64,000 nt of DNA from a virus: positions 31,829-95,828 of the IMG/VR virus record IMGVR_UViG_3300046786_000121; one strand, given 5' to 3'. Below, piece by piece: positions 52,219 to 64,000 of this stretch (the first letter of the stretch is position 1; each line of letters begins with the position of its first letter). The notes beneath the pieces are model-generated. The model was not told the DNA's origin, ran no database searches, and worked only from the letters and a program-made list of their open reading frames with translations. The translations under genes and the position numbers were made by a program.

Positions 52219-52222
52219 CCAA

Positions 52223-52803: not shown

Positions 52804-52826
52804 AGTATGCTCCTTTGTATGTCTAG

Positions 52827-52856: not shown

Positions 52857-52859
52857 CCA

Positions 52860-53306
52860 TTATTTTACTTGTTGAAGACTCGCCACTTTGATAGTGAATA
52901 CTTCGTTGTCTGTGTCCCCGCGGAACTCTGATGCAAGGCAGTCCAGTTCTGCTTCGGCTTTCGTGATTTGAATGCCGTTGCGTGTGTATTCTACTTGAGG
53001 AACAAAGTCGTTGCGAACACGGGTGCAACGATAGTAGTATTCACCTTTGTGCTCGATGATGTGTGGATAGTCGAACCATTCGCCCCATGGCAGGCCCTGG
53101 TTCTGTGCTGGCAATTCGCCTGATGCTCGCTTGTCCTTAACCGCTTGGATGTTGTCGTATTCTACGCCTACACGGGCTTGGAATGTTGACAGCTTCATGA
53201 TTGGTTCTTTGTTTTTACGAACCTTCATTGGGCGGAGTGTTGTGAGCGTTGCGATAGTGCCGCGGCGCTTGTTTAGCAATTGCAGGATTTCGTTTGTTTG
53301 AATCAT
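52860..53306 (-). CDS. Hypothetical early protein
   Basis: SD AAGGAG; LPWGEW..YP.IIEHKGEYY. Confidence 0.85.
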   Translation of the reverse strand: MIQTNEILQLLNKRRGTIATLTTLRPMKVRKNKEPIMKLSTFQARVGVEYDNIQAVKDKRASGELPAQNQGLPWGEWFDYPHIIEHKGEYYYRCTRVRNDFVPQVEYTRNGIQITKAEAELDCLASEFRGDTDNEVFTIKVASLQQVK

Positions 53307-53335
53307 CTTAGCTCCTTTTGTGTGTGTATGTGTAA

Positions 53336-53364
53336 ATTATACAACCAAAATGTCTAGCTGTCAA
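53336..53364 (-). promoter_or_regulatory. Early promoter cassette 3
   Basis: TTGACA-17-TATAAT. Confidence 0.9.
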
Positions 53365-53471
53365 CCAAAAATCATAGTTCCTACCGCCGCGATCCATATC
53401 AGCAGAGCCTGGGCGATACCGTAGTGGAAGAGGAACCAAAACAGGGCGATCCATCCAATCAGTCTAATCAT
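53361..53471 (-). CDS. 36-aa hydrophobic peptide (not in ORF track)
   Basis: MIRLIGWIALFWFLFHYGIAQALLIWIAAVGTMIFG; own promoter and SD AAGGAG. Confidence 0.7.
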   Translation of the reverse strand: MIRLIGWIALFWFLFHYGIAQALLIWIAAVGTMIFG

Positions 53472-53498
53472 AGCCAACTCCTTTGTGTTGATGACTAG

Positions 53499-53527
53499 AG
53501 TATACTGTCACCTAGCCAAAATGTCAA
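53499..53527 (-). promoter_or_regulatory. Early promoter cassette 4
   Basis: TTGACA-17-TATACT. Confidence 0.88.
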
Positions 53528-53708
53528 CCAATCTTTGATTTAATTGATCCATCTCACTGGCTTCGACGTAGAAGTCTGTGGTGGGATCCCAGTAGCTGCC
53601 TTCCCGGGGATCGTAGTAGAGAACTCTATCGATGAACCAGAACGGCCCCTCGAGTCCATCACGGGGGAGCCACTTAGGATCCCGTGTGCCTAGAACCTTG
53701 AATCCCAT
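53508..53708 (-). CDS. Hypothetical early protein
   Basis: GLEGPF...VLYYDP.EG.YWDP.TDFY; TAATG coupling. Confidence 0.8.
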   Translation of the reverse strand: MGFKVLGTRDPKWLPRDGLEGPFWFIDRVLYYDPREGSYWDPTTDFYVEASEMDQLNQRLVDILAR

Positions 53709-53830
53709 TATCGGCTTTCGCGGACTGATTCGAGGATCTTAGCCTGCTTCTTCGCGATGTAGAAGCTGAATCCGAAACGGAAGACACGGACGAAGTGCAG
53801 TCCGCCTACCTTTTTGTATGTTAGAATCAT
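53708..53830 (-). CDS. 40-aa basic peptide (not in ORF track)
   Basis: MILTYKKVGGLHFVRVFRFGFSFYIAKK...; own promoter and SD. Confidence 0.7.
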   Translation of the reverse strand: MILTYKKVGGLHFVRVFRFGFSFYIAKKQAKILESVRESR

Positions 53831-53861
53831 CTTGGGCTCCTATTGCGTTGTTGATGTGTAG

Positions 53862-53890
53862 ATTATACCATCACTTGTCCAAAATGTCAA
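53862..53890 (-). promoter_or_regulatory. Early promoter cassette 5
   Basis: TTGACA-17-TATAAT; 32 bp identical to cassette 6. Confidence 0.9.
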
Positions 53891-53897
53891 CCATTTT

Positions 53898-54410
53898 TTA
53901 AAACTTTCCGCCTGGGCGAACAATGGCTGCACGATTGCCACATCGGCTACCGTCTTTAGCAGTCTGCCAGGTATAGTCGCAGGTTCCTAATGCCCCAGAT
54001 GCTGGGAATGCTCTAACCAAGGCTGCGAGAAGGATGCCTGTGCCTACTACCTTAACAACCGTTCCCCATCCTGTGTCCCAGAAACTGATTTCCGGTTCTT
54101 CCCTCGAAGGTTTCTGTGGGATTGACTTAGGAGTAATCCTTTCCTGAAACTCTGCTACTGTTTCGCTCTGCAGGATACAGTTGCTGCCATCTGTTGCATA
54201 GCTGGCAAAGTACCCCACATACCCGTCCTTGATAAACACATCCTTACCCTCGCTGGATCTGCGTTCCCAACCATTCTTCTCTCCATCGATGTAGAGTTGT
54301 TGATAGGCTTTGACGCAGGCTTCAGGCGAATTAAGCGGGAATCGTTCTACGGCAGCTTGACAGGTAGTTGCTAGGATTGCTAGGATTAGGAATGTTGCTA
54401 TAGAGCGCAT
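53898..54410 (-). CDS. Exported/membrane protein with Cys-containing C-terminal motif
   Basis: Signal peptide, TM segment, CDY.WQ.AKDGSRCG.RAA..RPGG. Confidence 0.75.
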   Translation of the reverse strand: MRSIATFLILAILATTCQAAVERFPLNSPEACVKAYQQLYIDGEKNGWERRSSEGKDVFIKDGYVGYFASYATDGSNCILQSETVAEFQERITPKSIPQKPSREEPEISFWDTGWGTVVKVVGTGILLAALVRAFPASGALGTCDYTWQTAKDGSRCGNRAAIVRPGGKF

Positions 54411-54436
54411 TGTATTCTCCTTCTTACAATGACTCT

Positions 54437-54465
54437 ATTATACCATCACTTGTCCAAAATGTCAA
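54437..54465 (-). promoter_or_regulatory. Early promoter cassette 6
   Basis: TTGACA-17-TATAAT, inside the 3' end of the upstream ORF. Confidence 0.9.
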
Positions 54466-54862
54466 CCAATTCCTTGCTGGATAATCCATTCGCCTTGGCC
54501 ATAGCCTTGATCTGCTCGGCTACTCTCTCACGGCGAGTTTCTTCATCACGGCGGGCCTTCTCGGCTTTGGCCAATGCTGCTTTCTTCTCTCGTTCGATCT
54601 TGGCTTCTTGGGCAAGGCGCTGCTTCTCTAAGCGTTCCTCGTATTCCTTGTCGGTTTCCAAGCGTTTGACAACCGCGACTGCCTCACCATAGGAATCCAT
54701 CTTGACAGTGATCCTGCCTCCGTGTAGAATCTCTTGTTCGGTGAAGTTTAGCCGAAAGTCTTCGAGTGCTTTGGCTGCTTCTCGGATTTCCTTGCCGTGA
54801 AATAGCTTTCTCAGAGGGATCCTCTTAGATTTCAGCTCAACGGTTTTGCGGGGCGCTGTCAT
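54446..54862 (-). CDS. Coiled-coil hypothetical protein
   Basis: 138 aa, charged helical C-terminal half. Confidence 0.75.
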   Translation of the reverse strand: MTAPRKTVELKSKRIPLRKLFHGKEIREAAKALEDFRLNFTEQEILHGGRITVKMDSYGEAVAVVKRLETDKEYEERLEKQRLAQEAKIEREKKAALAKAEKARRDEETRRERVAEQIKAMAKANGLSSKELVDILDK

Positions 54863-55142
54863 TGCTTTCTTTCAGTTGCTGACGAAGTTCCTGTGCTTGT
54901 CCCATAGCGTTGAATGCCTTATCTTGTGCATCCATGGTATAGAGGATCGCTGCCAAGCCTACGGTGCTCATGACGAGGTTGGTGATAATCAAGGGCCAAT
55001 CACGGACGCGAATCGCCACGAACAACCACATGAAACCTCCCACGACTAGGATCGAGGGGCCTTCAGGATAGTATCCTAAGCCGTTCACTCCAGTCCCCAC
55101 GATGAGGACCAGGGTGGCTAACCATTTAACGAATTCAGTCAA
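54837..55142 (-). CDS. 3-TM membrane protein
   Basis: Hydrophobic segments; ATGA-type overlap. Confidence 0.7.
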   Translation of the reverse strand: MTEFVKWLATLVLIVGTGVNGLGYYPEGPSILVVGGFMWLFVAIRVRDWPLIITNLVMSTVGLAAILYTMDAQDKAFNAMGQAQELRQQLKESNDSAPQNR

Positions 55143-55333
55143 ATCATCTCTCCTTCGCCGGAAGTCATGCAGTCTAGATCGTAATTTGCCTCTAGGATAT
55201 CTACTTCAAAGGTGTTAAGCTCAAAGGCTACGGATGTGTCGTAAACAGCATCAGGGAACTCACAGCCTGCTGCTACAAGTCCTTTGAGGTGTGCAAGTGC
55301 TTCTGTGAAGCGTGTGCGTTTTTGCTTTGCCAT
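55139..55333 (-). CDS. Hypothetical early protein
   Basis: Start re-called to MAKQKR after SD. Confidence 0.75.
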   Translation of the reverse strand: MAKQKRTRFTEALAHLKGLVAAGCEFPDAVYDTSVAFELNTFEVDILEANYDLDCMTSGEGEMI

Positions 55334-55361
55334 GTCCTGCTCCTTGTGTGTGTATGTGTAA

Positions 55362-55390
55362 ATTATACGACAGGATAGCCAAAATGTCAA
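55362..55390 (-). promoter_or_regulatory. Early promoter cassette 7
   Basis: TTGACA-17-TATAAT. Confidence 0.9.
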
Positions 55391-55393
55391 CCA

Positions 55394-55825
55394 TTATTTT
55401 GCCTGAGTGATCTCGCCCTGCTCATTGACGTTGAAGCTGCCGCCGATGAGTTCTGCCCCGTCGCCTTCTTCGATGACGAGCCTGATGCCTACCAGCTTCT
55501 CTCCCAGGCGCTTGATTAAGGATTCTTTGGAGTCTCCTTGGCCCAGGAACTGATCGTCTTCCTTGCGGAAAGCGTAAAGGACCTCGCCGTGCTTCTCAAT
55601 CTTGATAGGCACGATTTCGTAACCGTTCTCGTCACGCTCTGTGTCTGCTGCTGCTTCTGGATCGAGATCGTCTTTCCAATGGTTAATGAACTTGTCCAGT
55701 TCTTTGTTAGTGATGCCGGCTTTACGGAACATCTCTGCCATGGTGTAAAACATAATCTTCTCCTGCACCTTCCAGCCGAGCCAGAATGCAGCCACAAAGA
55801 CGAGAACGAGTTCGATGATATCCAT
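55394..55825 (-). CDS. N-anchored membrane protein
   Basis: N-terminal TM segment; TAATG coupling. Confidence 0.8.
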   Translation of the reverse strand: MDIIELVLVFVAAFWLGWKVQEKIMFYTMAEMFRKAGITNKELDKFINHWKDDLDPEAAADTERDENGYEIVPIKIEKHGEVLYAFRKEDDQFLGQGDSKESLIKRLGEKLVGIRLVIEEGDGAELIGGSFNVNEQGEITQAK

Positions 55826-56151
55826 TAGGCTTTCCTTGGGTGATAAAGAGCGGCTGCTTCCTTGCGAAGTGCTCCTGCTTTCTTGTATAATTCGTCTGCG
55901 GTATTCGACAGCGCGGCGCTACGGGCTTCTGTTAGCTTACTACCGCCGAACTCACGATCTATGTAGTACTGGATCAAGTTGTTCTTGATAAGGCTAACGA
56001 GATCGCCACCTTGATCATCTGGACAGATAAACCTGACGGGACACTTGCCCCAACTCTTATCGGATACGAACTCTGCGTAATACCGTCTATGATCCTTGTT
56101 GTGTGGATCAAAGGCTACTAAGGGCCTTGCAAGATATTCTAGTTTGCTCAT
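55825..56151 (-). CDS. Hypothetical early protein
   Basis: RP.VAFDP.NKDHR..Y..F.....WG.CPVRF. Confidence 0.8.
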   Translation of the reverse strand: MSKLEYLARPLVAFDPHNKDHRRYYAEFVSDKSWGKCPVRFICPDDQGGDLVSLIKNNLIQYYIDREFGGSKLTEARSAALSNTADELYKKAGALRKEAAALYHPRKA

Positions 56152-56177
56152 GTCTTTATTTAATAGTTAGATAATGT

Positions 56178-56206
56178 ATTATACTACCAAATGCTCGTCA
56201 AGTCAA
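56178..56206 (-). promoter_or_regulatory. Early promoter cassette 8
   Basis: TTGACT-17-TATAAT, abutting a terminator U-tract. Confidence 0.85.
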
Positions 56207-56208
56207 TC

Positions 56209-56245
56209 AAAAAAGGGCCCTCCGTGCATCAAAACAGGGAGGGCC
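56209..56245 (-). terminator. Intrinsic terminator
   Basis: GGCCCTCC/GGAGGGCC stem plus U6. Confidence 0.8.
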
Positions 56246-56259
56246 AAATGTTACCGCTA

Positions 56260-56275
56260 CCGGGAGCGAATCGGT
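56260..56275 (-). repeat. 16-nt 3'-UTR hairpin element, copy 1
   Basis: ACCGATTCGCTCCCGG, identical at 63742-63757. Confidence 0.9.
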
Positions 56276-56277
56276 TG

Positions 56278-56586
56278 TTACGCGGTAACAGCTTCTGCCG
56301 TCACGGCAGTAGTCTCAGGGGCCTTAGCAGCGGGGCCTGCGTTCTTTTTCGCCACATAGGCGATAGCAGCCAGGACCGCTGGGTTACCTGCACCATAACC
56401 AGTGGCGGTCAAGTGTGCGGCAATCTCAGCCTTAGTCATCTCATGCGGCAATGGAATCAAGTCCACGTCCGTATGTCCGTTCTTCGACAGGATCTTGATA
56501 CGCATGGTATCATTCGCGAAACGGATCTTAGTCTTACCATCAAGTGTAGAAACACCTGCAACTGCGAACTTCTTATCTGTAGCCAT
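56278..56586 (-). CDS. Hypothetical early protein
   Basis: SD GAGG, own promoter and terminator. Confidence 0.85.
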   Translation of the reverse strand: MATDKKFAVAGVSTLDGKTKIRFANDTMRIKILSKNGHTDVDLIPLPHEMTKAEIAAHLTATGYGAGNPAVLAAIAYVAKKNAGPAAKAPETTAVTAEAVTA

Positions 56587-56643
56587 TTAAATTACCTCTT
56601 CTGTATGTGTGTTAATCAATACCAAACCATTTGGTACAATTTT

Positions 56644-56672
56644 AATATAGCATCTCTGCTACCCTATGTCAA
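56644..56672 (-). promoter_or_regulatory. Early promoter cassette 9
   Basis: TTGACA-17-TATATT. Confidence 0.8.
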
Positions 56673-56676
56673 CCAA

Positions 56677-56856
56677 TTATTTTACCAAATTAGTCTGGAT
56701 CGTAACTGATTGTTTCTCGTCCAGGGCGGCGATGAATTCGTCGTCATAGACAAGATCCTGCATGGTGAGATCGATCATCGATTCCACCTTATCCATATCG
56801 GGAGTGCCCTCCCCGGCACACTCCACGGTGAATGTAAACTTATACTGGCGTGCCAT
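56677..56856 (-). CDS. Hypothetical early protein
   Basis: Start re-called to MARQYK after SD GGAGG. Confidence 0.7.
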   Translation of the reverse strand: MARQYKFTFTVECAGEGTPDMDKVESMIDLTMQDLVYDDEFIAALDEKQSVTIQTNLVK

Positions 56857-57457
56857 TCTTCGCCTCCACGCCGTCCTTAATCCACAAGGTGAGTTCTTCT
56901 TCGTTCTCACGCTCGTATTCTTCTAAGGTTGCCACGATATCGAATTCTTCGTCGAGTTCCTTTGGCAGGTCCACTTGTGCTTGCTTGCTACCGTTTGTGG
57001 TGTCGTAGCAGTCGTCCGAGCCATCCTCGTAGATACCTGCATACTCACAGCCTTCGCCCATATACAAGCAACGGACTTCGTAACCTTGGCTAACCATTGT
57101 GTCAAATGCGGCAATGGGTGGGCTCCACGCTGTTTGACAGTGCAGGACAATGGTGTTATCATCCATCCGCGTGTAACCTACTTCACAGAGATCCCACTTG
57201 GTGCCCCAATGCGTAATGTTCCAATCATACCAGCTGGAGAAGCCGTATTTGGCTACCATAGCCGCTTTCTTCTTCTCGCGAGCAGCCTGCTCTGGACCGT
57301 GTCCCCAAGTCGTTAAATCATCATCGACAAGTTCTTGGGGGCAAGGAATGATCGTCTGCAGAACCCCGACGTTGTTGTCGTGCGTTGCTTCAATTGCGTC
57401 GATCAAGGCTTTGTCAGCGTGTTTGATCGTGATGTTATTTGTGGTCCAATTAGGCAT
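56840..57457 (-). CDS. YubB/DUF1281 ferredoxin-like family protein
   Basis: MPNW..N.I.I, WYDWN..HWGTKWD, TAWSPP. Confidence 0.8.
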   Translation of the reverse strand: MPNWTTNNITIKHADKALIDAIEATHDNNVGVLQTIIPCPQELVDDDLTTWGHGPEQAAREKKKAAMVAKYGFSSWYDWNITHWGTKWDLCEVGYTRMDDNTIVLHCQTAWSPPIAAFDTMVSQGYEVRCLYMGEGCEYAGIYEDGSDDCYDTTNGSKQAQVDLPKELDEEFDIVATLEEYERENEEELTLWIKDGVEAKNGTPV

Positions 57458-57466
57458 CTCGGTTCC

Positions 57467-57649
57467 TTAGTTCAGTGAATCAATCATCTTGTTGAAAGTC
57501 TCGTCACCCCACTTGCGGCCCTGATAAGAGCAGATACCGCCAATGCGTTCCAGAGTGTTAATCTTCTCTGCATCAGTTGCATCGCTACGCATGATCTCTG
57601 CGGCTCTCTCTAACTGTTGCGCGACTGTGAGTTGTTGATCCTGTGTCAA
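57467..57649 (-). CDS. Hypothetical early protein
   Basis: TTG start with SD AAGGAG and own promoter. Confidence 0.7.
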   Translation of the reverse strand: MTQDQQLTVAQQLERAAEIMRSDATDAEKINTLERIGGICSYQGRKWGDETFNKMIDSLN

Positions 57650-57677
57650 TTGACTCTCCTTGTTAATCTATGCGTTA

Positions 57678-57706
57678 AGTATACAGCCAAAACGCATAGA
57701 TGTCAA
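57678..57706 (-). promoter_or_regulatory. Early promoter cassette 10
   Basis: TTGACA-17-TATACT; 11-bp inverted repeat around the -10. Confidence 0.88.
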
Positions 57707-57711
57707 CCAAA

Positions 57712-58038
57712 TTATGCCCCTTGATACAATTCGGCAGCGTTTACTGCGTATCCCATCAAGGCATCCTGTACAAGCTCGACGGCTTTGTAGCTTGTGCCAC
57801 CAATGTGCCATTCGCATTTGTGCAGGGGTGTGCTATACTGCTTCCAGTCGTAGATCGTTGCTACTGTGCCGTCTTCGCCTACGAGAATCCACTCTTGCGT
57901 AGTCTTATCGCCGCCACCTAAGCTGTCGCCGAACGTGGCAACCAGTGTTGCGAAGTCAGTTGTGATATAGCCTTGCAGGTGTGTGCCGTTGATCGAGTCG
58001 AAGTTGTCCTGGACTGTGTAAGTTGCATTGCGTGACAT
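57712..58038 (-). CDS. Hypothetical early protein
   Basis: GT.LQGYI...GDK...EW...ATIYDWK...WHIGG; start re-called. Confidence 0.8.
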   Translation of the reverse strand: MSRNATYTVQDNFDSINGTHLQGYITTDFATLVATFGDSLGGGDKTTQEWILVGEDGTVATIYDWKQYSTPLHKCEWHIGGTSYKAVELVQDALMGYAVNAAELYQGA

Positions 58039-58068
58039 GTCAGCTCCTATTGCGTTGTTGATGTATAG

Positions 58069-58097
58069 ATTATACAACCAAAATGCGTTGCTGTCAA
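58069..58097 (-). promoter_or_regulatory. Early promoter cassette 11
   Basis: TTGACA-17-TATAAT. Confidence 0.9.
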
Positions 58098-58504
58098 CCC
58101 AAAATGTAGGGTTTATTCCAGCGTCCCACGTTCACGTCAATGTAGTAAGCGGTATCGAAGTAGTCTGTCATCGCATCGCTGCGATCGTACCACTCATTGC
58201 CTTTTGCTGCTGCGAAGAGTTCAGTGAGGAACGCCTTGCAGTCGCCGGTGAAGTGCTCGTGGAACCAATAGGGGTTCACATCAATGGAATCCTTGGCAAT
58301 ATGAAGACGACGATCGCCTACAGGATCACGAGCCAGCGTTTCAGCATTGTAGTTGCCGATGAAGTCCAGCTTTCCCTGCTTGATGTTGATCATCAATGTG
58401 CTGTGATGATGAACTGCTAGGCTTGCTTTGACACCGTACTTTGTGCAGACTGCTTTGATTGCGGGTGCCAGCTTTGCCTTACGCTCTTGACTCATGTATG
58501 CCAT
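58094..58504 (-). CDS. Hypothetical early protein
   Basis: SD GGAG; D.SDAMTDYF..AYY.DVN.GRW.KPY. Confidence 0.85.
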   Translation of the reverse strand: MAYMSQERKAKLAPAIKAVCTKYGVKASLAVHHHSTLMINIKQGKLDFIGNYNAETLARDPVGDRRLHIAKDSIDVNPYWFHEHFTGDCKAFLTELFAAAKGNEWYDRSDAMTDYFDTAYYIDVNVGRWNKPYILG

Positions 58505-58535
58505 AGTTCGCTCCTATTGCGTTGTTGATGTGTAG

Positions 58536-58564
58536 ATTATACAACCAAAATCGTCAGTTGTCAA
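58536..58564 (-). promoter_or_regulatory. Early promoter cassette 12
   Basis: TTGACA-17-TATAAT. Confidence 0.9.
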
Positions 58565-58800
58565 GCCATTTCTTTGTAGACTTTGTAGCCCCTAGTCTGC
58601 AGAGTGTAGATTGCCTTGCGAATCTCAGAGGCTTTTGTGTCCTCCCAGTCCAGCATCTCCTTGGCAGCTTTGATAGTGTCATCATCACTGAACTCGCCGA
58701 AGTAGTAATGCTGATATCGATAGAACTTCTTCCCGTCCTCGTCCTTGAGCATCTGAATGGTGCCAATGCCCTTGTAGTCTACAATCTCGTTGAGTTTCAT
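58561..58800 (-). CDS. Hypothetical early protein
   Basis: SD AGGAG. Confidence 0.75.
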   Translation of the reverse strand: MKLNEIVDYKGIGTIQMLKDEDGKKFYRYQHYYFGEFSDDDTIKAAKEMLDWEDTKASEIRKAIYTLQTRGYKVYKEMA

Positions 58801-58801
58801 G

Positions 58802-58987
58802 TTATGCTCCTACGGGTGCGAACATCTTACGTCCCTCACGCATGAACGTGCGGATTGCGGCAGCTTCACGATTGTCCAGCTCATCGTTGTCCAGCTGTTC
58901 CTTCATGACAATAACCATGTCCAGCAGGCTCATACCGTATACGGCTCGCTTGTCTTCGATGATCTTGATTGCTTGCTTGATGTCCAC
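58802..58987 (-). CDS. Hypothetical early protein
   Basis: GTG start after SD AAGGAG. Confidence 0.7.
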   Translation of the reverse strand: MDIKQAIKIIEDKRAVYGMSLLDMVIVMKEQLDNDELDNREAAAIRTFMREGRKMFAPVGA

Positions 58988-59016
58988 GTCACGCTCCTTT
59001 GTGTTAGTATGACTCA

Positions 59017-59045
59017 ATTGTAATACCAAAAGGGGCTGTTGTCAA
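59017..59045 (-). promoter_or_regulatory. Early promoter cassette 13
   Basis: TTGACA-17-TACAAT; AAAGGGG/CCCCTTT around the -35. Confidence 0.85.
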
Positions 59046-59057
59046 CCCCTTTCAGAA

Positions 59058-59399
59058 TTACTTGCGTGTCACACGATAGATCGTTCCCTGCGCTGTAACT
59101 ACCTTCTCAGCACCTGCTGCCGCGAACATCTGTTCAATGTTGCTTGCTTCGCGTGTTAAACGATCTGCCGCTGTGGGCTTGTCGATCTTAACAGTGTAAA
59201 ACTTATCCCGGTAAGTGAGATAGACTTTGCTACGCATGAATGCCGAGCGTGTCAGTTCATGCAGTGCGTCTGCTTGCTGTTGTTGTGCTGTTGTGTAAAG
59301 TTGCTTCGATACAATGCTGCGGCGCTGTGCGTCCAAATACGCTGCCTGCTTGCTGTATTGTGTCTTAGCCGCTTGTGTGTCTAAATCTTTGCTTTGCAT
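59058..59399 (-). CDS. Hypothetical early protein
   Basis: SD GGAG; extended -10 TGTTATACT at 59439-59447. Confidence 0.75.
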   Translation of the reverse strand: MQSKDLDTQAAKTQYSKQAAYLDAQRRSIVSKQLYTTAQQQQADALHELTRSAFMRSKVYLTYRDKFYTVKIDKPTAADRLTREASNIEQMFAAAGAEKVVTAQGTIYRVTRK

Positions 59400-59489
59400 A
59401 TTGCGCTCCATTTAGTCCCTGCCTATTGCAGTGTCTCTAGTATAACACCATTTCGCAAAACTTTACCGAAAAATTAAAAAATATTTTGG

Positions 59490-59518
59490 TTGACATTTTG
59501 GACAGATGACCTTATAAT
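59490..59518 (+). promoter_or_regulatory. Inverted copy of the early promoter cassette
   Basis: ttggTTGACAttttggaca...TATAATagagtcat, 17-bp spacer. Confidence 0.88.
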
Positions 59519-59524
59519 AGAGTC

Positions 59525-59620
59525 ATAGGTTCGAAGGCTATCCCCGGGGTGGACGTCGAGGGCCACCGTGTGTGTCTCACGGTGCTGAAGGCAAAAAAAG
59601 GGCCCCGAAGGGCCCTAAAC
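59525..59620 (+). ncRNA. Candidate structured small RNA
   Basis: Strong promoter, no SD-led ORF, several GC-rich hairpins. Confidence 0.45.
59593..59616 (-). terminator. Intrinsic terminator
   Basis: AGGGCCC-TTCG-GGGCCCT plus U-tract on the minus strand. Confidence 0.9.
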
Positions 59621-59638
59621 CAACCACCAGGAGAAACC

Positions 59639-59815
59639 TTAGCTGTTCACAGTCTCGAACGGACTGAGCTCTTCGCTGTCCGCCACGCCCATGTCTTCGA
59701 GTGCGGCAAGCACTGTCTCGATGCTACACTCTAAGAGTGTTGCAATCATCTTAGCACTGTGGCCCTCGATGTAGAGTTCTTGAATGTCATACGACAGGTC
59801 TTTAATTGCGCTCAT
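59639..59815 (-). CDS. 58-aa HTH-like protein (not in ORF track)
   Basis: MSAIKDLSYDIQELYIEGHSAKMIATLLECSIETV...; SD AAGGA; ATGA coupling. Confidence 0.75.
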   Translation of the reverse strand: MSAIKDLSYDIQELYIEGHSAKMIATLLECSIETVLAALEDMGVADSEELSPFETVNS

Positions 59816-60042
59816 ACTGTTTCCTTTGATTTGACAAATATTACTAGATCATCTTGTGATACACGCTCATCGACACTCCACTCATCATCGTAGTAATCGA
59901 TCCATTGACGAAGTGCGGGTTCGTCATTATCGACTTCTCCGTTAAAGCCGAGCTCTAGAGCCTCTTCTTCTGTATCAGCCTCTACCCAGTATGATTCCTG
60001 GATAAGGCTGGTACGGCTCAATAAGAACTTATACTTCTTCAC
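59812..60042 (-). CDS. Hypothetical early protein
   Basis: VEADTEEEA motif; GTGA coupling. Confidence 0.7.
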   Translation of the reverse strand: MKKYKFLLSRTSLIQESYWVEADTEEEALELGFNGEVDNDEPALRQWIDYYDDEWSVDERVSQDDLVIFVKSKETV

Positions 60043-60167
60043 TTGGCAAGTTCGGTGCTCTGAGTCTTGACAGTATCAACGCCCTTGTCTAACATACGAG
60101 CGATGCCACTGAAGCCTACTGTTGCCAATACTAGTCCAAAGACTGTGCCTGCGATGAATGCTTTCAT
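60039..60167 (-). CDS. 42-aa membrane peptide (not in ORF track)
   Basis: MKAFIAGTVFGLVLATVGFSGIARMLDKGV...; SD AGGAG. Confidence 0.75.
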   Translation of the reverse strand: MKAFIAGTVFGLVLATVGFSGIARMLDKGVDTVKTQSTELAK

Positions 60168-60301
60168 GATTGCTCCTGTGAAGACTTCTTAGAGAACTTC
60201 CACTTGATGAACTGGAAGGCTGTTTGAACAAGACCTATGCGCCAAGCCCACATAAGATCCATAACTACCATACCAACTACGAATGCTACGATGATTTCCA
60301 T
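60164..60301 (-). CDS. Small membrane peptide
   Basis: Start re-called to MEIIVAF after SD AAGGAG. Confidence 0.7.
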   Translation of the reverse strand: MEIIVAFVVGMVVMDLMWAWRIGLVQTAFQFIKWKFSKKSSQEQS

Positions 60302-60329
60302 ATCAGCTCCTTTGTGTGTGTATGCGTGT

Positions 60330-60358
60330 ATTATATGCTCATTACGTGCGCTTGTCAA
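60330..60358 (-). promoter_or_regulatory. Early promoter cassette 14
   Basis: TTGACA-17-TATAAT. Confidence 0.9.
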
Positions 60359-60395
60359 GCACATTAGCAGCGGGGCCTACAGCCCCATGCCCTTT

Positions 60396-61607
60396 TTAGC
60401 CTGCGTCTTTCTCGTAGATAACAGTCTGTCCAAAGGGTGCTTCTGCGTCTGTGTTGCCTTTGACAATGAAGATAGTATCTACTTGATCCTCAGGACCCCA
60501 ACTGCCGCAAGGGTAGCCGTCTGTGAACATAATGAACTTCTTAGCCTCAATGCCTTCGTCAAGCATGAACTGGAAGTTAATATCAAAGTCAGTGCCGCCA
60601 CCGCCTTGAGGTTCGTAGTCCAAGAGGTCCAAACTGTTGTCTTGAGTAATCTTGACATAGTTGTAGATCTGTGTATCAAAGCACCACAGGTGAATACTGA
60701 AGTCCTCGTACTGGTCCATGATACCTTTAACTTCGCTGAGGAAGGTAGAAGCATCTTCTGTGCCAATACTGCCCGACATATCAACTGCAATAGCCACGTC
60801 AATAGTAGTATCCTGACGCATACCTGGGAGGATTGCGCCGCTGTGCATACTCTTACGATTAGGGCGAGTGAAGCTGTAATCGTTGCGGATAATGCTTTGG
60901 ATCTCTTGACGGATCAACTGGCGCCAGCTAATCTTAGGCTCAGTCATGTCCTTGATCAAACGCTGGATACCTGCGGGCACTTTACCTGCGCCAGCGGCAC
61001 TTGCACTCTGCACCATTGCTTCTTTGATCTCATCACGGATGCGTTGTGCGTCTTCCTTAGAGATAGTAGGGCGTCCGCCTTTGCCTTTCTCGCCTTCTTC
61101 ACCTTCACCGCCTGGGCTGTTGCCGTCCTCGTTGATGTGTTCGTCCAGCAAGTCGCCGAGCTGTTGCAAGAGTTGAGGCATACTGATCTTCTCTGCTTTA
61201 TCGTAGAGCTCGTCGTAGATCTCTTCCCATGCCATGCCACGATACTTGTTATCCTGGCAAATCTTTACTTCAGTAATCTTGTCGCCGATGCGCTCGTCTA
61301 CAAGGATCTGATTGACAGCAAAGTCCTGCGCGATGTTACTCAGTTGACGATCGCGGCTACCAACACGCCCAAAGTGATCAAACACGCAGTGGCAGATCTC
61401 GTGTCCGAACAAGAACTCCAGCTTCTTAATGCTGAGCTTTTGCACGAACTTGGTGTTGTAATAGAAGTCGCGTCCGTTAGTAGCGGCAGTAGGACACCAG
61501 TCGTCTGCTTCGATAAGACGCATACGAGTTGCCATGTTGCCAAAGAAAGGCGCTTTGAGTAGCAAGCCTACTCGGGCTGTGGTTAGTTTCTCGACGATTG
61601 GATCCAT
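60396..61607 (-). CDS. DUF2201-type metallopeptidase-like + VWA domain protein
   Basis: TAATNG, HEICH (HExxH), VDMSGS MIDAS, GGGGTDF, FTDGY. Confidence 0.92.
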   Translation of the reverse strand: MDPIVEKLTTARVGLLLKAPFFGNMATRMRLIEADDWCPTAATNGRDFYYNTKFVQKLSIKKLEFLFGHEICHCVFDHFGRVGSRDRQLSNIAQDFAVNQILVDERIGDKITEVKICQDNKYRGMAWEEIYDELYDKAEKISMPQLLQQLGDLLDEHINEDGNSPGGEGEEGEKGKGGRPTISKEDAQRIRDEIKEAMVQSASAAGAGKVPAGIQRLIKDMTEPKISWRQLIRQEIQSIIRNDYSFTRPNRKSMHSGAILPGMRQDTTIDVAIAVDMSGSIGTEDASTFLSEVKGIMDQYEDFSIHLWCFDTQIYNYVKITQDNSLDLLDYEPQGGGGTDFDINFQFMLDEGIEAKKFIMFTDGYPCGSWGPEDQVDTIFIVKGNTDAEAPFGQTVIYEKDAG

Positions 61608-61639
61608 GTTTCGCTTCCTAGTGTTGTCTGTATGTATAT

Positions 61640-61668
61640 ATTATACAATCAGACGTTGCCTCTGTCAA
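61640..61668 (-). promoter_or_regulatory. Early promoter cassette 15
   Basis: TTGACA-17-TATAAT, abutting a terminator. Confidence 0.9.
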
Positions 61669-61670
61669 CC

Positions 61671-61707
61671 AAAAAAGGAGGGAGAGTGAACCTAAATCCA
61701 CTCTCCC
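61671..61707 (-). terminator. Intrinsic terminator
   Basis: GGGAGAGTG/CACTCTCCC stem plus U6. Confidence 0.8.
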
Positions 61708-61716
61708 CTGCAATGG

Positions 61717-62822
61717 GCGAGGTCTTAATTCTCCATTGCAGAAAGCACATACTTACCAAAACGCTTGTGGAATTCGTCGAATGACTTCATCTTAGTAGCG
61801 TCGAAGGGCAAGTTATAGTTAGTCAAGCCAGTCTTGGCACCCATCACAACCAGCTCGGTTGGGAAGTTGTCCATCATGTAACGGAAGAAGCAGTCTGCCA
61901 TTTCGTCAAACTTCTTGTTCTTCTTCTCTGCTTGATCCTTGAGCTCGTAGCACAATGACACGGTCAAGGAATACATCGCTGAGACTTCCTTAATCTGCAA
62001 GTCTTTAACCTTGCCTTCAAGGATGTCAATTGCCTTAGGCAAACGACCTGCAATCTTGCGGTGAGCCATAAACTTAACAGCCAAGCCATCGCCAACAGCA
62101 CCAGCAACCAAGTTGTGGAGAGTGTCAATGTCAGTGTCGTCGTCTTTGAGCAAGTCGCTCACGAACACCCAAGAACGAGGAGTTGCGAATGCCTTGCTAG
62201 GACTCTTTGGATCAAAGTCATACAAGTCCTGCTTGGCAAAGCCCACATAACCAAGAACCTCAGGGTGGATTGCGTTCATAACAGCCCACTCTTGGAAGTC
62301 GTCAAAGTCAACCTTGGCTTCCAAGTGAATGAAGCGGTTAGCCAACGGAGCAGGCATACGGTATGTCACGCCACGATCGCCTTCACGGTTACCAGCGGCA
62401 ACCACGTCAACACCCTTAGGCAGTTCGTAGGTACCAACACGGCGGTTCAGGATCAACTGATATGCCGCGGCTTGCACAGCTGGAGGAGCGGAGTTAAGCT
62501 CGTCCAAGAAGATGATTGCTGTGGACTCAGGGTCTGTAGGCAGTTCAGCTGGGGGAGCCCAAACCATTGCGCCTTTGTCTGAGTTGTAATAAGGGATACC
62601 TTTGATGTCAGTAGGTTCCCACAATGCCAGACGCACGTCAACGACTTCGCGACCTGCATCTTCGCCAATTTGCTTGACGATATCGGATTTACCAATGCCT
62701 GGAGGACCCCACAGGAACACTGGACGGCGGGTGCCGATTGCTTTACGAATAGAACGCTTCGCGGCTTTTGGACCAACTTGGCGGACGGACATATCTGAAG
62801 ATTTTGCCATTTAAGACCTCGC
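61717..62822. repeat. Perfect 12-bp inverted repeat bracketing the MoxR gene
   Basis: GCGAGGTCTTAA at 61717-61728 and TTAAGACCTCGC at 62811-62822. Confidence 0.92.
61725..62810 (-). CDS. MoxR-family AAA+ ATPase
   Basis: WGPPGIGKS, IFLDELN, AAGNR, PLANRF, TPRSW. Confidence 0.93.
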   Translation of the reverse strand: MAKSSDMSVRQVGPKAAKRSIRKAIGTRRPVFLWGPPGIGKSDIVKQIGEDAGREVVDVRLALWEPTDIKGIPYYNSDKGAMVWAPPAELPTDPESTAIIFLDELNSAPPAVQAAAYQLILNRRVGTYELPKGVDVVAAGNREGDRGVTYRMPAPLANRFIHLEAKVDFDDFQEWAVMNAIHPEVLGYVGFAKQDLYDFDPKSPSKAFATPRSWVFVSDLLKDDDTDIDTLHNLVAGAVGDGLAVKFMAHRKIAGRLPKAIDILEGKVKDLQIKEVSAMYSLTVSLCYELKDQAEKKNKKFDEMADCFFRYMMDNFPTELVVMGAKTGLTNYNLPFDATKMKSFDEFHKRFGKYVLSAMEN

Positions 62823-62862
62823 TTTAAGAAAATTAAAAGTTACTGTGTTTCTCAGTGTCTAA

Positions 62863-62891
62863 AGTATAGCACCGAAGTGCCGTCCTGTCAA
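62863..62891 (-). promoter_or_regulatory. Early promoter cassette 16
   Basis: TTGACA-17-TATACT; GCAC-TTCG-GTGC in the spacer. Confidence 0.88.
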
Positions 62892-63640
62892 CCGGTTTTC
62901 TTCACATAATTCAACTGAGTAGTCTTGTCATCGCGTTGGGCTTTGATCTTAGCCTTGATGCGATGCTCTGAGTCCTTAGACAAGTCTGAGGGGAACCAGA
63001 AGTCAACAAACGATTCTCCCATGCGGGCCTGAATGCGATACTTATTGTATTCTTTGTTGAATCGTGTAGTGACAACAGTAATGTCGCCTACTATAGTGTC
63101 CCCTACATTCCCGGCGAGCTGTACGCTGCTGTAGACTTCACGCTTGACTTCTTGATTAACACGATCACGACGTGCGATGCTAGGGAGGCAACTGATGATT
63201 GCGAACTCCAGCATATTGCGTCCGGTGAACTGCTCGATGCAGGAAATCTTGTATGCCTGGGACTGGAACTCGTTGAGTCCGCCAGCGATAGCTTTCATTG
63301 TGTAGCTTGTGAAGTGTCTGCGATACTCTTCGCCTGCTTGACGATCTTCCTCAGTGACGAGGCTGAAGTCGTTCTTCTGTAGGCATTCGCGAACGATACG
63401 CTTGTTAGCACGTTTCGAGATCTCGGAAGTGTCTTGTCCTGTAACGATCCACTGATCCTCTTTGAGGTAGCCGCCATTGATACGATCAACTGCTGCTGCT
63501 AAGGCCCAGACATCTGCTGCTTGGAACACTGACGGGACTCTGACTTGAGTCATACGTGGCTCTTCGTAGTCGTCATCCTCGTGACCCAGACGCTGGATAT
63601 CACGTCTGCTCCATCCACTTACATCTACGAATCCTGGCAT
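62888..63640 (-). CDS. Hypothetical protein with OB-fold-like C-terminus
   Basis: SD AAGGAG; G.VGD.I...I.V...IKAKIK......T.LNYVK. Confidence 0.75.
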   Translation of the reverse strand: MPGFVDVSGWSRRDIQRLGHEDDDYEEPRMTQVRVPSVFQAADVWALAAAVDRINGGYLKEDQWIVTGQDTSEISKRANKRIVRECLQKNDFSLVTEEDRQAGEEYRRHFTSYTMKAIAGGLNEFQSQAYKISCIEQFTGRNMLEFAIISCLPSIARRDRVNQEVKREVYSSVQLAGNVGDTIVGDITVVTTRFNKEYNKYRIQARMGESFVDFWFPSDLSKDSEHRIKAKIKAQRDDKTTQLNYVKKTG

Positions 63641-63670
63641 ATCTCGCTCCTTGTTTTAAACAATAGCTCT

Positions 63671-63699
63671 ATTATATAGTCTAACTTAGAGTCTGTCAA
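63671..63699 (-). promoter_or_regulatory. Early promoter cassette 17
   Basis: TTGACA-17-TATAAT, abutting a terminator. Confidence 0.9.
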
Positions 63700-63701
63700 C
63701 C

Positions 63702-63728
63702 AAAAAGAAAGGACTCCTAAGAGTCCTT
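63702..63728 (-). terminator. Intrinsic terminator
   Basis: AAGGACTC-TTAG-GAGTCCTT plus U-rich tract. Confidence 0.85.
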
Positions 63729-63741
63729 CCTCAAACCCGCC

Positions 63742-63757
63742 CCGGGAGCGAATCGGT
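63742..63757 (-). repeat. 16-nt 3'-UTR hairpin element, copy 2
   Basis: ACCGATTCGCTCCCGG, identical at 56260-56275. Confidence 0.9.
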
Positions 63758-63774
63758 ATAGGTTTGAAAGCTAA

Positions 63775-64000
63775 TTACAGAGCTGAGCTGTGCATACCCA
63801 AAGCGCGAGCCTTGTAGCCAAGAGCTACGATCTCACGTGATGGCTTGCCAATCTCGTAAGTTGTAACCATAACGCCATTGCCTGCCTTGTGACGTTTAGC
63901 GTAGACAGCATAACCACTGTGACGAATGCGAGTAGCTTCGGCACGGATGTTCTTTACACCAAAGCGATGATTCGCTTCGGCTGCTGTCAATGTCTCGCCG
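63775..64000 (-). CDS. Winged-helix DNA-binding protein, 5'-truncated
   Basis: GETLTAAEA..RFGVKNIRA....IR.SGY.VY; frame open to the window edge. Confidence 0.7.
   Translation of the reverse strand, partial: GETLTAAEANHRFGVKNIRAEATRIRHSGYAVYAKRHKAGNGVMVTTYEIGKPSREIVALGYKARALGMHSSAL

Follow-up and report, generated by a model that had tools for sequence, protein, structure and literature searches.

In phage lambda, the oop promoter (pO) fires against the rightward early genes and faces the 3' end of cII, which encodes a small HTH regulator; the oop unit has its own terminator and a defined product of 77 nt. The nut sites of lambda, the put sites of HK022 and ops are promoter-proximal elements, present a few times per genome, that combine a hairpin with a single-stranded or non-template motif; nutL and nutR point outward in opposite directions. 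To our knowledge T4 has no DnaA boxes, and hardly any replication origins or non-coding control elements have been mapped in jumbo phages. According to one study, lambda pO lowers transcription from pR and affects replication (PMC3985674). A review of T4 places oriE, oriF and oriG near switches in transcription direction and has them work through promoter-made R-loops; the promoters are middle promoters that depend on MotA, and the R-loops form in an unwinding element that is A+T-rich and has no specific sequence (PMC3016281). Two papers describe an RNA-DNA G-quadruplex and R-loop at CSB II that stop transcription and yield a replication primer (PMC3488243, PMC4176368), and two others present the PeSLs of T4-type phages as regulatory cassettes that are mobile and bring about the shuffling of genes (PMC2839356, PMC4122927).

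The element described here is well supported as an early, host-sigma-70-driven non-coding transcription unit. It is equally well supported that its first ~45 nt, predicted to form a 5' hairpin showing GUUCGAA and then an unpaired GGGGUGGACG, are a copy of a phage-specific module, and that this module always lies directly behind a strong promoter. Like lambda oop, the unit is short and non-coding, fires against early genes and lies near replication DNA; unlike oop, it has neither a terminator nor a defined product, shows no sequence similarity to it, and carries a module whose conservation does not depend on the facing gene. A promoter-made transcript acting in cis, as at T4 oriF(uvsY) and oriG(34), is likewise proposed for the module, and two relatives (G001 and G004) have it at a direction switch. 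Unlike the T4 origins, however, it combines a sigma-70 consensus early promoter with a G+C-rich module of fixed sequence; where a T4 oriF/oriG-type origin is concerned, the window has the promoter, but positions 59524-59576 are 64% G+C. The mitochondrial LSP-CSB II region resembles the module in having a conserved G-rich non-template block shortly behind a promoter, but belongs to another polymerase and domain of life, whereas the G-tracts of the module are short (G4-5, GG, GG, GGG) and the window copy has a G4Hunter score of only 0.92. We know of no sequence match to nut, put or ops, and unlike these the module is opposed to genes at 38 of 79 sites and has no known partner protein.

The window (the whole 64,000-nt stretch analysed) is a fragment of a jumbo myophage, and the whole contig is 95.8 kb long. 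Upstream of each of its early genes stand a terminator hairpin and a near-identical consensus promoter. A promoter scan found 11 perfect TTGACA-N17-TATAAT promoters in the window, against 0.03 expected. Nine are on the minus strand between 53.3 and 63.7 kb; the two on the plus strand are at 42918, among plus-strand genes, and at 59490-59518, the sole one on that strand within the early cluster of minus-strand genes. An earlier note on this DNA had described the latter as part of an inverted cassette 36/41 identical to the minus-strand cassette at 54429-54469, and alignment of the 41 nt gives the same count (88%). An exact second occurrence of its first 19 nt, TTGGTTGACATTTTGGACA, is confined to 54451-54469 on the minus strand, and on the plus strand the window has no other copy of this class, again as that note had it. 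The promoter shared with another cassette and the break of homology with the related locus L137 at this cassette are PeSL-like. PeSLs precede genes codirectionally, however, whereas this cassette is inverted, precedes no gene and no SD, and has an additional conserved module; promoter identity fits a PeSL-type cassette, and gene placement does not. The features of the locus are listed in Table 1.

Table 1. Features around the plus-strand promoter, with window coordinates.
Feature	Coordinates	Strand	Basis
Putative extended -10 TGTTATACT for the 117-aa gene (59058-59411)	59439..59447	-	Assigned by eye
Early-type sigma-70 promoter cassette (-35, 59490-59495; -10, 59513-59518; predicted start, A59525)	59486..59524	+	12/12 consensus match
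P1, predicted 5'-terminal hairpin	59525..59541	+	ATAG 59525-59528, loop GTTCGAAGG, CTAT 59538-59541
Unpaired G-tract motif GGGGTGGACG	59546..59555	+	Invariant alignment columns; R1 match
Lineage-specific 3' part	59556..59598	+	CCACC, CACCGTG/CACGGTG hairpin, A7 run
Intrinsic terminator of the 58-aa gene unit	59599..59616	-	Stem AGGGCCC/GGGCCCT, T7 tail 59598-59592
58-aa HTH-like early gene	59639..59815	-	ORF, translation, weak HTH_38 match

The minus-strand unit on which the promoter fires runs from 60358 to 59599 and comprises genes for 42, 76 and 58 aa. As in lambda pO/oop, promoter and unit are convergent: the 58-aa gene faces the promoter, which lies 75 nt past the one-way terminator of the unit, and this gene shares one conserved block with the promoter and module. 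By the terminator scan, the GGGCCC hairpin is the intrinsic terminator of the minus-strand unit, and on a plus-strand RNA it would be no more than a GC hairpin; the related locus L005 has a compensatory G-C to A-T change in it. An antisense effect of the plus-strand RNA on the HTH-like gene is possible, and overlap with the 3' end of that gene would require read-through of the hairpin, which is likely. On the other side, the putative TGTTATACT stands back to back with the plus-strand promoter, with an A/T-rich spacer between them, and is missing from the promoter scan because its -35 is poor. The 117-aa protein encoded beyond it has no relatives in IMG/VR.

The earlier note had proposed an sRNA of ~95 nt that ends at the GGGCCC hairpin. 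All of the features it listed are present in the plus-strand sequence, namely ATAG/CTAT, GGTGG (59548-59552) with CCACC (59563-59567), CACCGTG (59564-59570) with CACGGTG (59578-59584), and GGGCCC-CGAA-GGGCCC (59600-59615). The proposed end did not hold up: the plus strand has no U tract there (TAAACC follows), so that the hairpin and U tract of a terminator-ended sRNA gene are not found together in the window on the transcribed strand, a terminator scan to the window end gave no terminator-like plus-strand site in 59525-64000, and only 20 of 77 family members have such a site within 400 nt. The picture of the window is thereby corrected, as the supposed sRNA terminator belongs to the opposite strand. 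RNA beyond 59600 is C-rich, and Rho may for this reason end the plus-strand RNA. The predicted fold of a 96-nt RNA (-37.4 kcal/mol, z = -1.69) is unexceptional, 11 of 200 shuffles folding equally well. Nor are the two stems, which had been read as mutually exclusive, conserved. Only the window and L137 have CACCGTG/CACGGTG; in two of the eight members with GCCACCGTG, GGTGG/CCACC is disrupted and no compensating change restores it, and other GCCACCGTG members diverge 3' of that motif. GGTGG/CCACC and an apparent pseudoknot in L107 and L139 were thus set aside as quirks of subfamilies and not a family-wide structure.

The ATAG/CTAT hairpin had been called T-loop-like, and here the hairpin is backed by covariation (see below) while the T-arm or tRNA-like interpretation fails. 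A T-arm has a 5-bp stem, a G53-C61 closing pair and a 7-nt loop TTCRANN; the loop here is 9-10 nt, the position facing the G has A, U or G and never C, and ARAGORN predicted no tRNA genes in the window. No Rfam 15 family matched the window at its gathering threshold, and the best match below threshold (E = 0.44) was on the opposite strand, over the terminator.

Comparison with relatives of the locus shows a homology block with L137 that coincides with 59486-59815 (72-87% identity, against 37-47% in the flanks) and has its left edge at the cassette. Within it, the cassette is 82% identical; 59556-59598, conserved in L137 alone, has 74% identity and a single U.G change. The window, L005 and L137 have promoter, module and terminator in common, and both flanks are unrelated. 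The promoter-driven non-coding RNA of the earlier note is borne out as a genuine, selected unit and no stray cassette, in that the promoter and the sequence behind it are kept in the closest relative, and in that both belong to a family of 79 other sites. The same inverted arrangement is found at the same place in five relatives. With the model R1, 64 of 80 related loci were searched and only five have the module; the remaining 16 (L019-21, L031-32, L042-46, L050-52, L068-69 and L076) were left out as presumed duplicates, judged from identical promoter maps. The note had also suggested that the inverted pair could flip the 5-kb segment between its arms. Across the 80 related loci no series of inverted promoters occurs; each has at most two inverted consensus promoters, and hence no flipped segment was seen. 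No DNA similarity to the window region was found in GenBank phages.

The family was retrieved from IMG/VR with the pattern TATAAT-N5-12-TCGAA-N2-16-GGGGNTGGAC, which matched in 92 stretches representing 79 distinct sites (97 matches, reduced to 82 and then 79 by collapsing identical sequences); as the pattern demanded GGGGNTGGAC, variants such as the window copy were missed. The variable base N is A or G in all but two matches, and both exceptions are without a promoter; these (L146 and L171, with T or C and no -35) were treated as chance matches and removed. A promoter within two mismatches of the consensus is present at 76 of the 79 sites. The module can be defined as a consensus promoter, TCGAAC 7-12 nt past the -10, and GGGGRTGGACG 5-11 nt further on. 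It spans about +3 to +45, the spacing between loop and G-tract is variable, and the letters TCGAAC and TGGAC are invariant. Positions after GGAC stay G-rich with no fixed sequence, and beyond ~+45 the sequence varies across the family.

The R1 model matches the window at 59524-59576 (24.4 bits, E = 8e-6); this and L005 (21 bits) are the lowest scores, all others being 33-45 bits. The P1 loop of the window corresponds to the family TCGAA(C) motif, with G (TCGAAG) where C stands in all 79 other sites, and its GGGGTGGACG is one base shorter, before TGGAC, than the family form GGGG-R-TGGACG. With TCGAAG and no R position, the window copy is a diverged member, and it may be decaying. The window shares the P1 stem, and across the family the stem closing the GTTCGAAC loop covaries, with pair types AU/GC/UA/UG and GC/CG/AU/UG. 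In the long class the covariation of P1 is 0.504, against 0.166 in shuffles, none of 500 shuffles was as high, and controls with slid positions reached at most 0.138. An all-against-all column scan gave no covarying pairing partner for the G-rich part. The family appears to be undescribed so far: no report was found in motif-string and topic literature searches, Rfam or INPHARED, 17 of the 92 family loci gave no Rfam match at E <= 0.5, and the module 11-mers occur in aptamer, primer or eukaryote contexts among the literature matches listed. No literature was found that brings together jumbo phage, DnaA box and origin of replication, and a broader search likewise gave nothing.

That the module is phage-specific is well supported. 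A single match was found in 596 Gb of bacterial and archaeal genomes, and two family members used as queries against 50,697 GenBank phage records gave chance matches only (E = 7-9). The carriers are about eighty IMG/VR phage contigs, all uncultured, from T4-type jumbo myophages with their own replisome genes. Carrier genomes have one to three copies, usually one. G000, G001, G002 and G003 have one each, G004 has two that point outward in opposite directions, and no module was found in G005, a close relative that is 98% complete; three near-complete genomes of 353-383 kb have one copy, a fourth has two and a fifth none.

At 21 of 77 family sites the 400 nt downstream contain at least three DnaA boxes with up to one mismatch; upstream, the same criterion gives 0 of 79. 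In G001 (383 kb), six of the seven exact TTATCCACA sites fall in ~130 bp right after the module and are followed by repeat-rich DNA; GC skew is uninformative as an origin test in this genome because it tracks gene orientation. An array of nine exact boxes in G003 lies 14 kb from the module, G002 and G004 have no array, and the 95.8-kb window contig has neither an exact TTATCCACA nor a cluster. An oriC-like DnaA-box cluster is thus a feature of some relatives and not of the window, and DnaA boxes as a universal partner of the module are ruled out by the window, G002, G003 and G004. In both G001 and G004 the early cluster opens with a promoter that stands back to back with the module, where transcription changes direction. 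By a crude longest-ORF heuristic that makes all orientation counts noisy, divergent upstream genes are seen at 45 of 66 sites within 1.5 kb and at 27 of 34 sites between 1.5 and 5 kb, the downstream genes at 1.5-5 kb are co-oriented at 15 sites and opposed at 12, the module is antisense to both neighbours at 38 of 79 sites, and a co-oriented gene lies within 600 nt downstream at 12 of 79, 11 of which belong to the short class. The ORFs at these 12 sites form eight unrelated groups, and the module was on this ground rejected as the leader of one gene.

We tentatively prefer the reading that the module is a cis-acting, origin-type transcript which works through an R-loop or G-quadruplex. It would act at the place of its synthesis, where the G-rich nascent RNA and the non-template strand, 20-45 nt behind the promoter, could form a stable R-loop or RNA-DNA G-quadruplex; the polymerase would then be held or stopped, and the locus marked. 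In complete relatives the module would fire into DnaA-box and iteron-like DNA and provide a primer or activator transcript of the origin type. The window copy would do its work inside the early cluster, with no DnaA boxes; being without its own terminator, its transcript must run into the 58-aa gene unit, where it may be ended by head-on collision, antisense pairing and probably Rho. G4Hunter scores reach at least 1.2 in 54 of 77 elements and in 2 of 727 other consensus promoters of the same loci, a contrast with some circularity, since GGGG is part of the search pattern; a block of the CSB II kind would have at least four G-tracts on the non-template strand and a score of about 1.2 or more. 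The DnaA-box and direction-switch context in the family and the lack of a consistent end also speak for this reading. Against it stand the absence of the module from G005 and from most of the related loci searched, a DnaA link that is not universal and is missing in the window, a G+C-rich region where T4 has an A+T-rich one, the co-oriented genes at 12 of 79 sites, the tandem promoters downstream at 23 of 77, and the departures of the window copy from the family. It is also conceivable, if doubtful, that the module is a new, self-contained nucleic-acid device of giant phages whose 5' hairpin and G-tract the host RNA polymerase reads as they emerge, either priming replication through a G-quadruplex or R-loop as a counterpart of CSB II or reprogramming polymerase without nut, put or ops; if so, the 'start landmark' for replication or transcription, so far unmapped in an entire clade of uncultured jumbo phages, would be this module.

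Neither an R-loop nor a G-quadruplex needs the invariant TCGAAC and TGGAC or the covarying hairpin, and these point to sequence-specific recognition of the RNA. An early RNA acting in trans, or a processed 5' fragment of ~45-100 nt, could work away from its gene as a sponge or as the decoy or anti-defence RNA of the earlier note, with the GUUCGAAC loop and the single-stranded GGGGRUGGACG binding a conserved protein of host or phage or pairing with a conserved RNA. We regard this as possible though not probable. Exact conservation in the loop and the unpaired stretch with variable spacing between them, a covarying stem with U.G pairs workable only on the plus-strand RNA, a consensus early promoter independent of the neighbouring genes and confinement to phages would all suit such an RNA, and a trimmed 3' end in the window could be shielded by the GC hairpin at 59600-59615. 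Yet the terminator is inconsistent (20/77 sites), everything past ~+45 varies, Rfam gives no match, and the 64-kb window holds no complement of the G-tract elsewhere (at most two mismatches in 12); the frequent DnaA-box array and the fixed position heading early clusters would also be left unexplained. Alternatively the module, as hairpin and single-stranded motif or as its non-template DNA, may be a cis signal to the host RNA polymerase, conferring pausing or resistance to termination by the logic of nut, put or ops, so that polymerases starting here behave unlike those from ordinary early promoters. This we consider unlikely, although the constant place at ~+3 to +45, the combination of a fixed-loop hairpin with a fixed unpaired motif, the one to three copies per genome (with the G004 pair facing outward like nutL and nutR) and a tandem second promoter within 300 nt downstream at 23 of 77 sites speak for it. 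By eye, GGGGRTGGAC|G fits in one register the elemental pause consensus G-10 Y-1 G+1 (PMC6062546), but a 3/3 fit in one of ~11 registers is weak and has a high likelihood by chance. No partner protein was identified, downstream orientation is mixed by the noisy count (15 co-oriented against 12 opposed at 1.5-5 kb), and in the window and L005 a resistant polymerase would have at least 4.5-7 kb of early genes to cross in the antisense direction. We know of no resemblance of the module to boxA or ops beyond G-richness.

The remaining readings give the conserved letters a lesser role or a different one. In a local, lambda pO/oop-like arrangement, the convergent promoter would damp or insulate the 60358-59599 unit by collision and antisense RNA, the weakly promoted 117-aa gene would be shielded from read-through, and the module letters would be incidental in this lineage. 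The convergence 75 nt past a one-way terminator with no plus-strand terminator after it, the single block of promoter, module, terminator and 58-aa gene common with L137, and the 38 of 79 sites that are antisense to both neighbours by the noisy count are what such control would look like, and the report that lambda pO lowers pR transcription and tunes replication (PMC3985674) is in line with it. We think it rather improbable all the same, as the non-overlapping 5' module is conserved where the convergent genes are unrelated, the G001 homologue of the 58-aa gene lies 5 kb from its module, and most relatives do without the element. A small protein or leader peptide could start at the RTG of GGGGRTGGAC, which is GTG 59549 in the window, and have the consensus MD[GV][ED]; R is always A or G in true matches, first codon positions show a periodicity like GNN, and codon 7 is often the Arg-like CGN. 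The open frames, however, range from 6 to 98 residues with no conserved end, GTG is commoner than ATG, the G-run is spaced 0-3 nt from the start codon, and codon 5 varies at position 1 with a fixed Y at position 3, opposite to what a coding sequence would show. When the window is compared with L005, the GTG frames part after a 2-nt indel, with ~7 non-synonymous and 2 synonymous changes counted by hand on the alignment. Frame length, codon pattern and SD spacing thus fail and this reading, to which we give very little credence, was rejected; the earlier note had been correct that the GTG has no SD, though the G-run abuts it, and its view of the unit as non-coding fits a frame conserved neither in relatives nor in the family alignment. 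Just as improbable is a functionless product of cassette shuffling, or an inverted-repeat arm that flips 54.45-59.5 kb. The early promoters here are PeSL-like mobile cassettes, the L137 homology starts at the cassette, and a 19-nt exact inverted repeat is present, but the sequence behind the promoter is conserved family-wide, five relatives share the inverted arrangement in place, and no more than two inverted consensus promoters occur in any of the 80 related loci. Family conservation and covariation largely refute this reading.

A short, readily recognisable sequence marks one locus per genome across a broad set of uncultured giant phages. It joins a consensus early promoter, a covarying hairpin and a fixed G-tract, together at 21 of 77 sites with the only DnaA-box array of the genome, and offers a fixed point from which early regions and candidate origins can be annotated in phage genomes from metagenomes. 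No single neighbour gene is tied to it, as the candidate genes are absent from the window. A GIY-YIG-like 115-aa gene (Pfam 20.7 bits, under the cut-off of 22.6) is near 36 sites, and a 70-aa ORF, for which a single-sequence search for further relatives gave only two loci, is near 35.

The window, which carries myophage genes including those for tail sheath, large terminase and a DnaB-like helicase, covers the final 64 kb of an IMG/VR virus record of 95.8 kb in total (estimated completeness 27%). Its terminase shares ~52% identity with the terminases of Pseudomonas jumbo phage PA5oct and Sinorhizobium phage Phosso, and 60% with the one encoded by G001, the complete 383-kb genome of an uncultured phage. 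Every convincing gene between ~50 kb and the window end is on the minus strand, and G+C in this part rises from 35-42% to 45-50%. By segment, the early cluster (50000-64000) has 45-50% G+C and the structural and replication part (1-48000) 33-43%; G001 shows a like contrast (45-48% at 80-100 kb, ~40% elsewhere). Nearly every small early gene has a terminator hairpin ahead of it, together with a perfect TTGACA-N17-TATAAT promoter, and the window has 11 perfect copies of this promoter where 0.03 are expected. This is the layout that excerpts of two papers describe for the PeSL promoter-terminator cassettes of T4-type phages (PMC2839356, PMC4122927).

The plus-strand promoter at 59.5 kb, to which the earlier note had drawn attention, is real. 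It is the sole perfect plus-strand copy within the early cluster, and its likeness to a minus-strand cassette was confirmed (36 of 41 bases identical, the first 19 exactly). The only other perfect plus-strand copy in the window has an AT-rich, partly palindromic spacer and plus-strand genes around it. Also inside the early cluster is a pair of genes for a MoxR-like AAA ATPase and a DUF2201 metallopeptidase/VWA protein, with a consensus promoter before each; in G001 this pair lies ~150 kb away from the early region.

Positions of the features discussed, in the window and in the compared genomes
Feature	Sequence	Position	Strand
Inverted consensus promoter	window	59490-59518	+
Similar promoter cassette	window	54429-54469	-
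Homology block shared with L005	window	59486-59815	
58-aa HTH-like early gene	window	59639-59815	-
Head-on promoter	window	60358	
MoxR-like ATPase/DUF2201 pair	window	60396-62810	-
Second perfect plus-strand promoter	window	42918-42946	+
Module promoter, -35	G001	86973	-
First of ~24 early promoters	G001	87018 onward	+
Eight DnaA-box-like sites	G001	86760-86889	
TATAGTG-type repeats	G001	~86330-86560	
AAGTGTGA-type repeats	G001	~86220-86260	
CACAGCGGGGTCT(N)TGTG motif (example)	G001	85980-86100	
Nine exact TTATCCACA boxes	G003	346750-347023	single strand
Module copy 1 and first early promoter	G004	119749 and 119788	
Module match	L197 (CALKUR010000019.1)	1664-1707	-

From this promoter a ~95-nt sRNA with switching stems had been proposed, ending at the GGGCCC-CGAA-GGGCCC hairpin. 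Every stem listed is present in the sequence; the T7 run of the hairpin is on the minus strand, however, and the plus strand continues TAAACC. The 58-aa gene, convergent with the promoter, has this hairpin as its intrinsic terminator, and a terminator scan from 59525 to the window end found no plus-strand terminator-like site. The 96-nt RNA does not fold notably better than shuffles (z = -1.69), and within the window ARAGORN found no gene and Rfam no match. The specific model, switching stems included, does not hold; the observation behind it is real, and more general than could be seen from this one sequence.

Relatives were taken as the 80 IMG/VR loci encoding a DUF2201 protein 75-87% identical to that of the window. 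Similarity past the promoter was found in one of them only, L005 (the same contig as L137), with 78% identity over 165 nt. The alignment retains the promoter, ATAGGTTCGAA, GGGGTGGAC, GCCACCGTG, an A-run and the terminator, in which a compensatory G-C to A-T change is seen; a U.G change in the CACCGTG stem allows pairing on the plus strand only. Homology (72-87% identity per feature) is confined to a single block with unrelated flanks on both sides (37-47%), and the promoter, the module behind it, the terminator and the 58-aa gene therefore form one shuffled block, whose left edge lies at the promoter cassette. At the equivalent place, four more relatives (L022, L023, L025 and L059) carry a consensus promoter that is inverted and back to back with a forward one. 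Of the 80 loci, 64 were searched by profile; the element was found in these four and L005 only, always oriented opposite to the genes. The suggestion that the 5-kb segment between the two cassettes could flip finds no sign here, because no related locus has more than two inverted promoters.

The DNA behind these inverted promoters has TCGAA...GGGG(R)TGGAC in common. The pattern TATAAT-N5-12-TCGAA-N2-16-GGGGNTGGAC was matched exactly in 92 IMG/VR stretches, giving 79 distinct sites after duplicates were collapsed and two promoterless matches (N = T or C) were dropped. At all 79, N is A or G and a C directly follows TCGAA, though the pattern left that base free; the promoter is within two mismatches of the consensus at 76. 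Extra bases on both sides of TCGAA define short (33), medium (29) and long (17) classes, the last including the window. In the long class the 2-4 bp stem closing the GTTCGAAC(A/T)G loop covaries, with pair types AU 6, GC 4, UA 2, UG 1 and GC 11, CG 2, AU 1, UG 1; its score is 0.504, against 0.166 +/- 0.057 for shuffles (0/500 as high) and at most 0.138 for slid controls. Selection acts on an RNA-level hairpin. For the G-rich part, by contrast, no column of the family alignment covaries as a partner; it is a fixed, unpaired primary-sequence element, followed by ~14 variable but G-rich bases. The window copy misses the pattern by one base, has TCGAAG and was recovered by profile (24.4 bits, E ~1e-6 to 8e-6); it and L005 (21 bits) are the lowest-scoring members. 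Many medium- and long-class members (L085, L087 and L094, for example) have a second conserved hairpin, AGTTAGT-loop-ACTAACT, at +50 to +75, which is absent in the window.

A protein read from the RTG frame was considered and rejected, as the peptides range from 6 to 98 residues and share only MD[GVA][EDGK]... GTG is the commoner 'start' and the G-run abuts it, position 1 of 'codon 5' is variable while position 3 is always a pyrimidine, and the window and L005 differ in frame after a 2-nt indel. The predicted transcript would be non-coding, in line with the apparently non-coding RNA of the earlier note.

By profile, one module copy each was found in the phage genomes G000, G001, G002 (356 kb) and G003 (353 kb), and none in G005 (353 kb, 98% complete), a close relative of the window's phage; G004 (322 kb, terminal repeats) has two by pattern. 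Some contigs have two or three copies within a few kb (three in L148; two each in L145, L095 and L154), and in a clade with a TTGCCA -35 every copy is followed in tandem by a second promoter and a gene. Across 596 Gb of bacterial and archaeal genomes a stricter pattern matched once; the contig concerned, L197, comes from a Dechloromonas MAG, is 9.4 kb long, resembles the L111/L159 phage subtype and is probably a binned phage fragment, which gives a possible hint at the host. Among 50,697 GenBank phage records nothing better than chance was found, Rfam gave no match over 17 family loci, and the literature, searched with the motif strings included, gave no relevant description of the module. We place the window element, as a diverged member, in a family of promoter-proximal modules that is apparently undescribed and belongs to uncultured jumbo phages. 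The family unit is mostly single-copy, conserved and phage-specific, and joins a consensus host promoter to a module of ~45 nt.

Upstream genes run away from the element at 45/66 sites (within 1.5 kb) and at 27/34 (1.5-5 kb), and downstream orientation is mixed (19 vs 20 and 15 vs 12, respectively). Judged by the nearest ORFs, the element is antisense to both neighbours at 38/79 sites, and likewise in the window. A divergent promoter-like site lies within 230 nt upstream at 50/78 sites and a tandem one within 300 nt downstream at 23/77. The unit has no regular terminator: plus-strand terminator-like structures occur within 400 nt at 20/77 sites, fewer than the 26 on the opposite strand. The adjoining genes are not conserved along with the module. 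A GIY-YIG-like 115-aa gene (Pfam 20.7 bits, below cut-off) with a GP88-family gene is upstream at 36 sites and a convergent 70-aa ORF downstream at 35, both absent from the window; the few co-oriented downstream genes are mutually unrelated. In loci L085-L176 the 115-aa gene is the first divergent gene, ~65-440 nt upstream of the module, followed by the GP88-family gene (36/79 sites); its product is about the size of T4 endonuclease II. The small hairpin motif CACAGCGGGGTCT(N)TGTG is repeated in non-coding DNA of L085, L107, L022 and G001.

In G001 and G004 the early cluster has the module at its head, pointing away from the cluster and back to back with the first of the early promoters; the second G004 copy is near the cluster tail, in the direction of the genes. 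The G001 module promoter fires into eight DnaA-box-like sites in 130 nt, including six of the seven exact boxes in the whole genome, and this array and the repeats past it make up a gene-poor kilobase that looks origin-like. With one mismatch allowed, 21/77 sites have at least three DnaA boxes in the 400 nt downstream, and 0/79 have them upstream. The link is not universal: in G003 the nine boxes (274 bp) and the module are 14 kb apart, no array occurs in G002, G004 or G005, and the window's contig has no exact box. Placement at the cluster head and before such arrays is frequent, not obligatory. The window module has a like direction relative to the downstream early genes, with at least a further 4.5 kb of minus-strand early genes, including the MoxR-like ATPase and DUF2201, ahead of it. 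The simplest reading is that an ancestral boundary element may have become internal through cassette-mediated gene shuffling and is now diverging.

The unit is classed with phage early non-coding or origin-type transcription units. Tentatively, its very strong promoter may make a G-rich transcript which, with the non-template strand, would form an R-loop or RNA-DNA G-quadruplex whose action, in cis, would be that of a primer or activator transcript of origin type. G4Hunter scores reach 1.2 in 54/77 elements and in 2/727 other consensus promoters of the same loci, a partly circular contrast, and the window copy scores only 0.92. Active T4 origins are described as located where transcription switches strand and as working through R-loops made from promoters (PMC3016281); the conserved G-block of mitochondrial CSB II is likewise described as working through an R-loop (PMC3488243, PMC4176368), and the backward lambda promoter pO as tuning replication (PMC3985674). 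T4 unwinding elements, as excerpted, are A+T-rich and non-specific, which counts against this reading, as do DnaA arrays that are elsewhere or missing in some genomes and a complete close relative that has no module.

A further point against this reading is that a sequence-specific reader is required by the exact letters of TCGAAC and TGGAC and by the covarying hairpin. The alternative of an early RNA that acts in trans, or of a decoy, is somewhat doubtful. That the module is a nut/put/ops-like or pausing signal to polymerase seems unlikely; GGGGRTGGAC|G matches the G-10 Y-1 G+1 consensus, as excerpted from PMC6062546, which argues for it only weakly. Purely local interference with the 58-aa gene unit, of lambda-pO/oop type, is distinctly unlikely. 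Whatever the module's role, the window transcript must pass the hairpin into antisense of the 58-aa gene. Its RNA past 59600 is C-rich (C/G 1.3-1.8), and head-on polymerases together with Rho would be expected to limit it.
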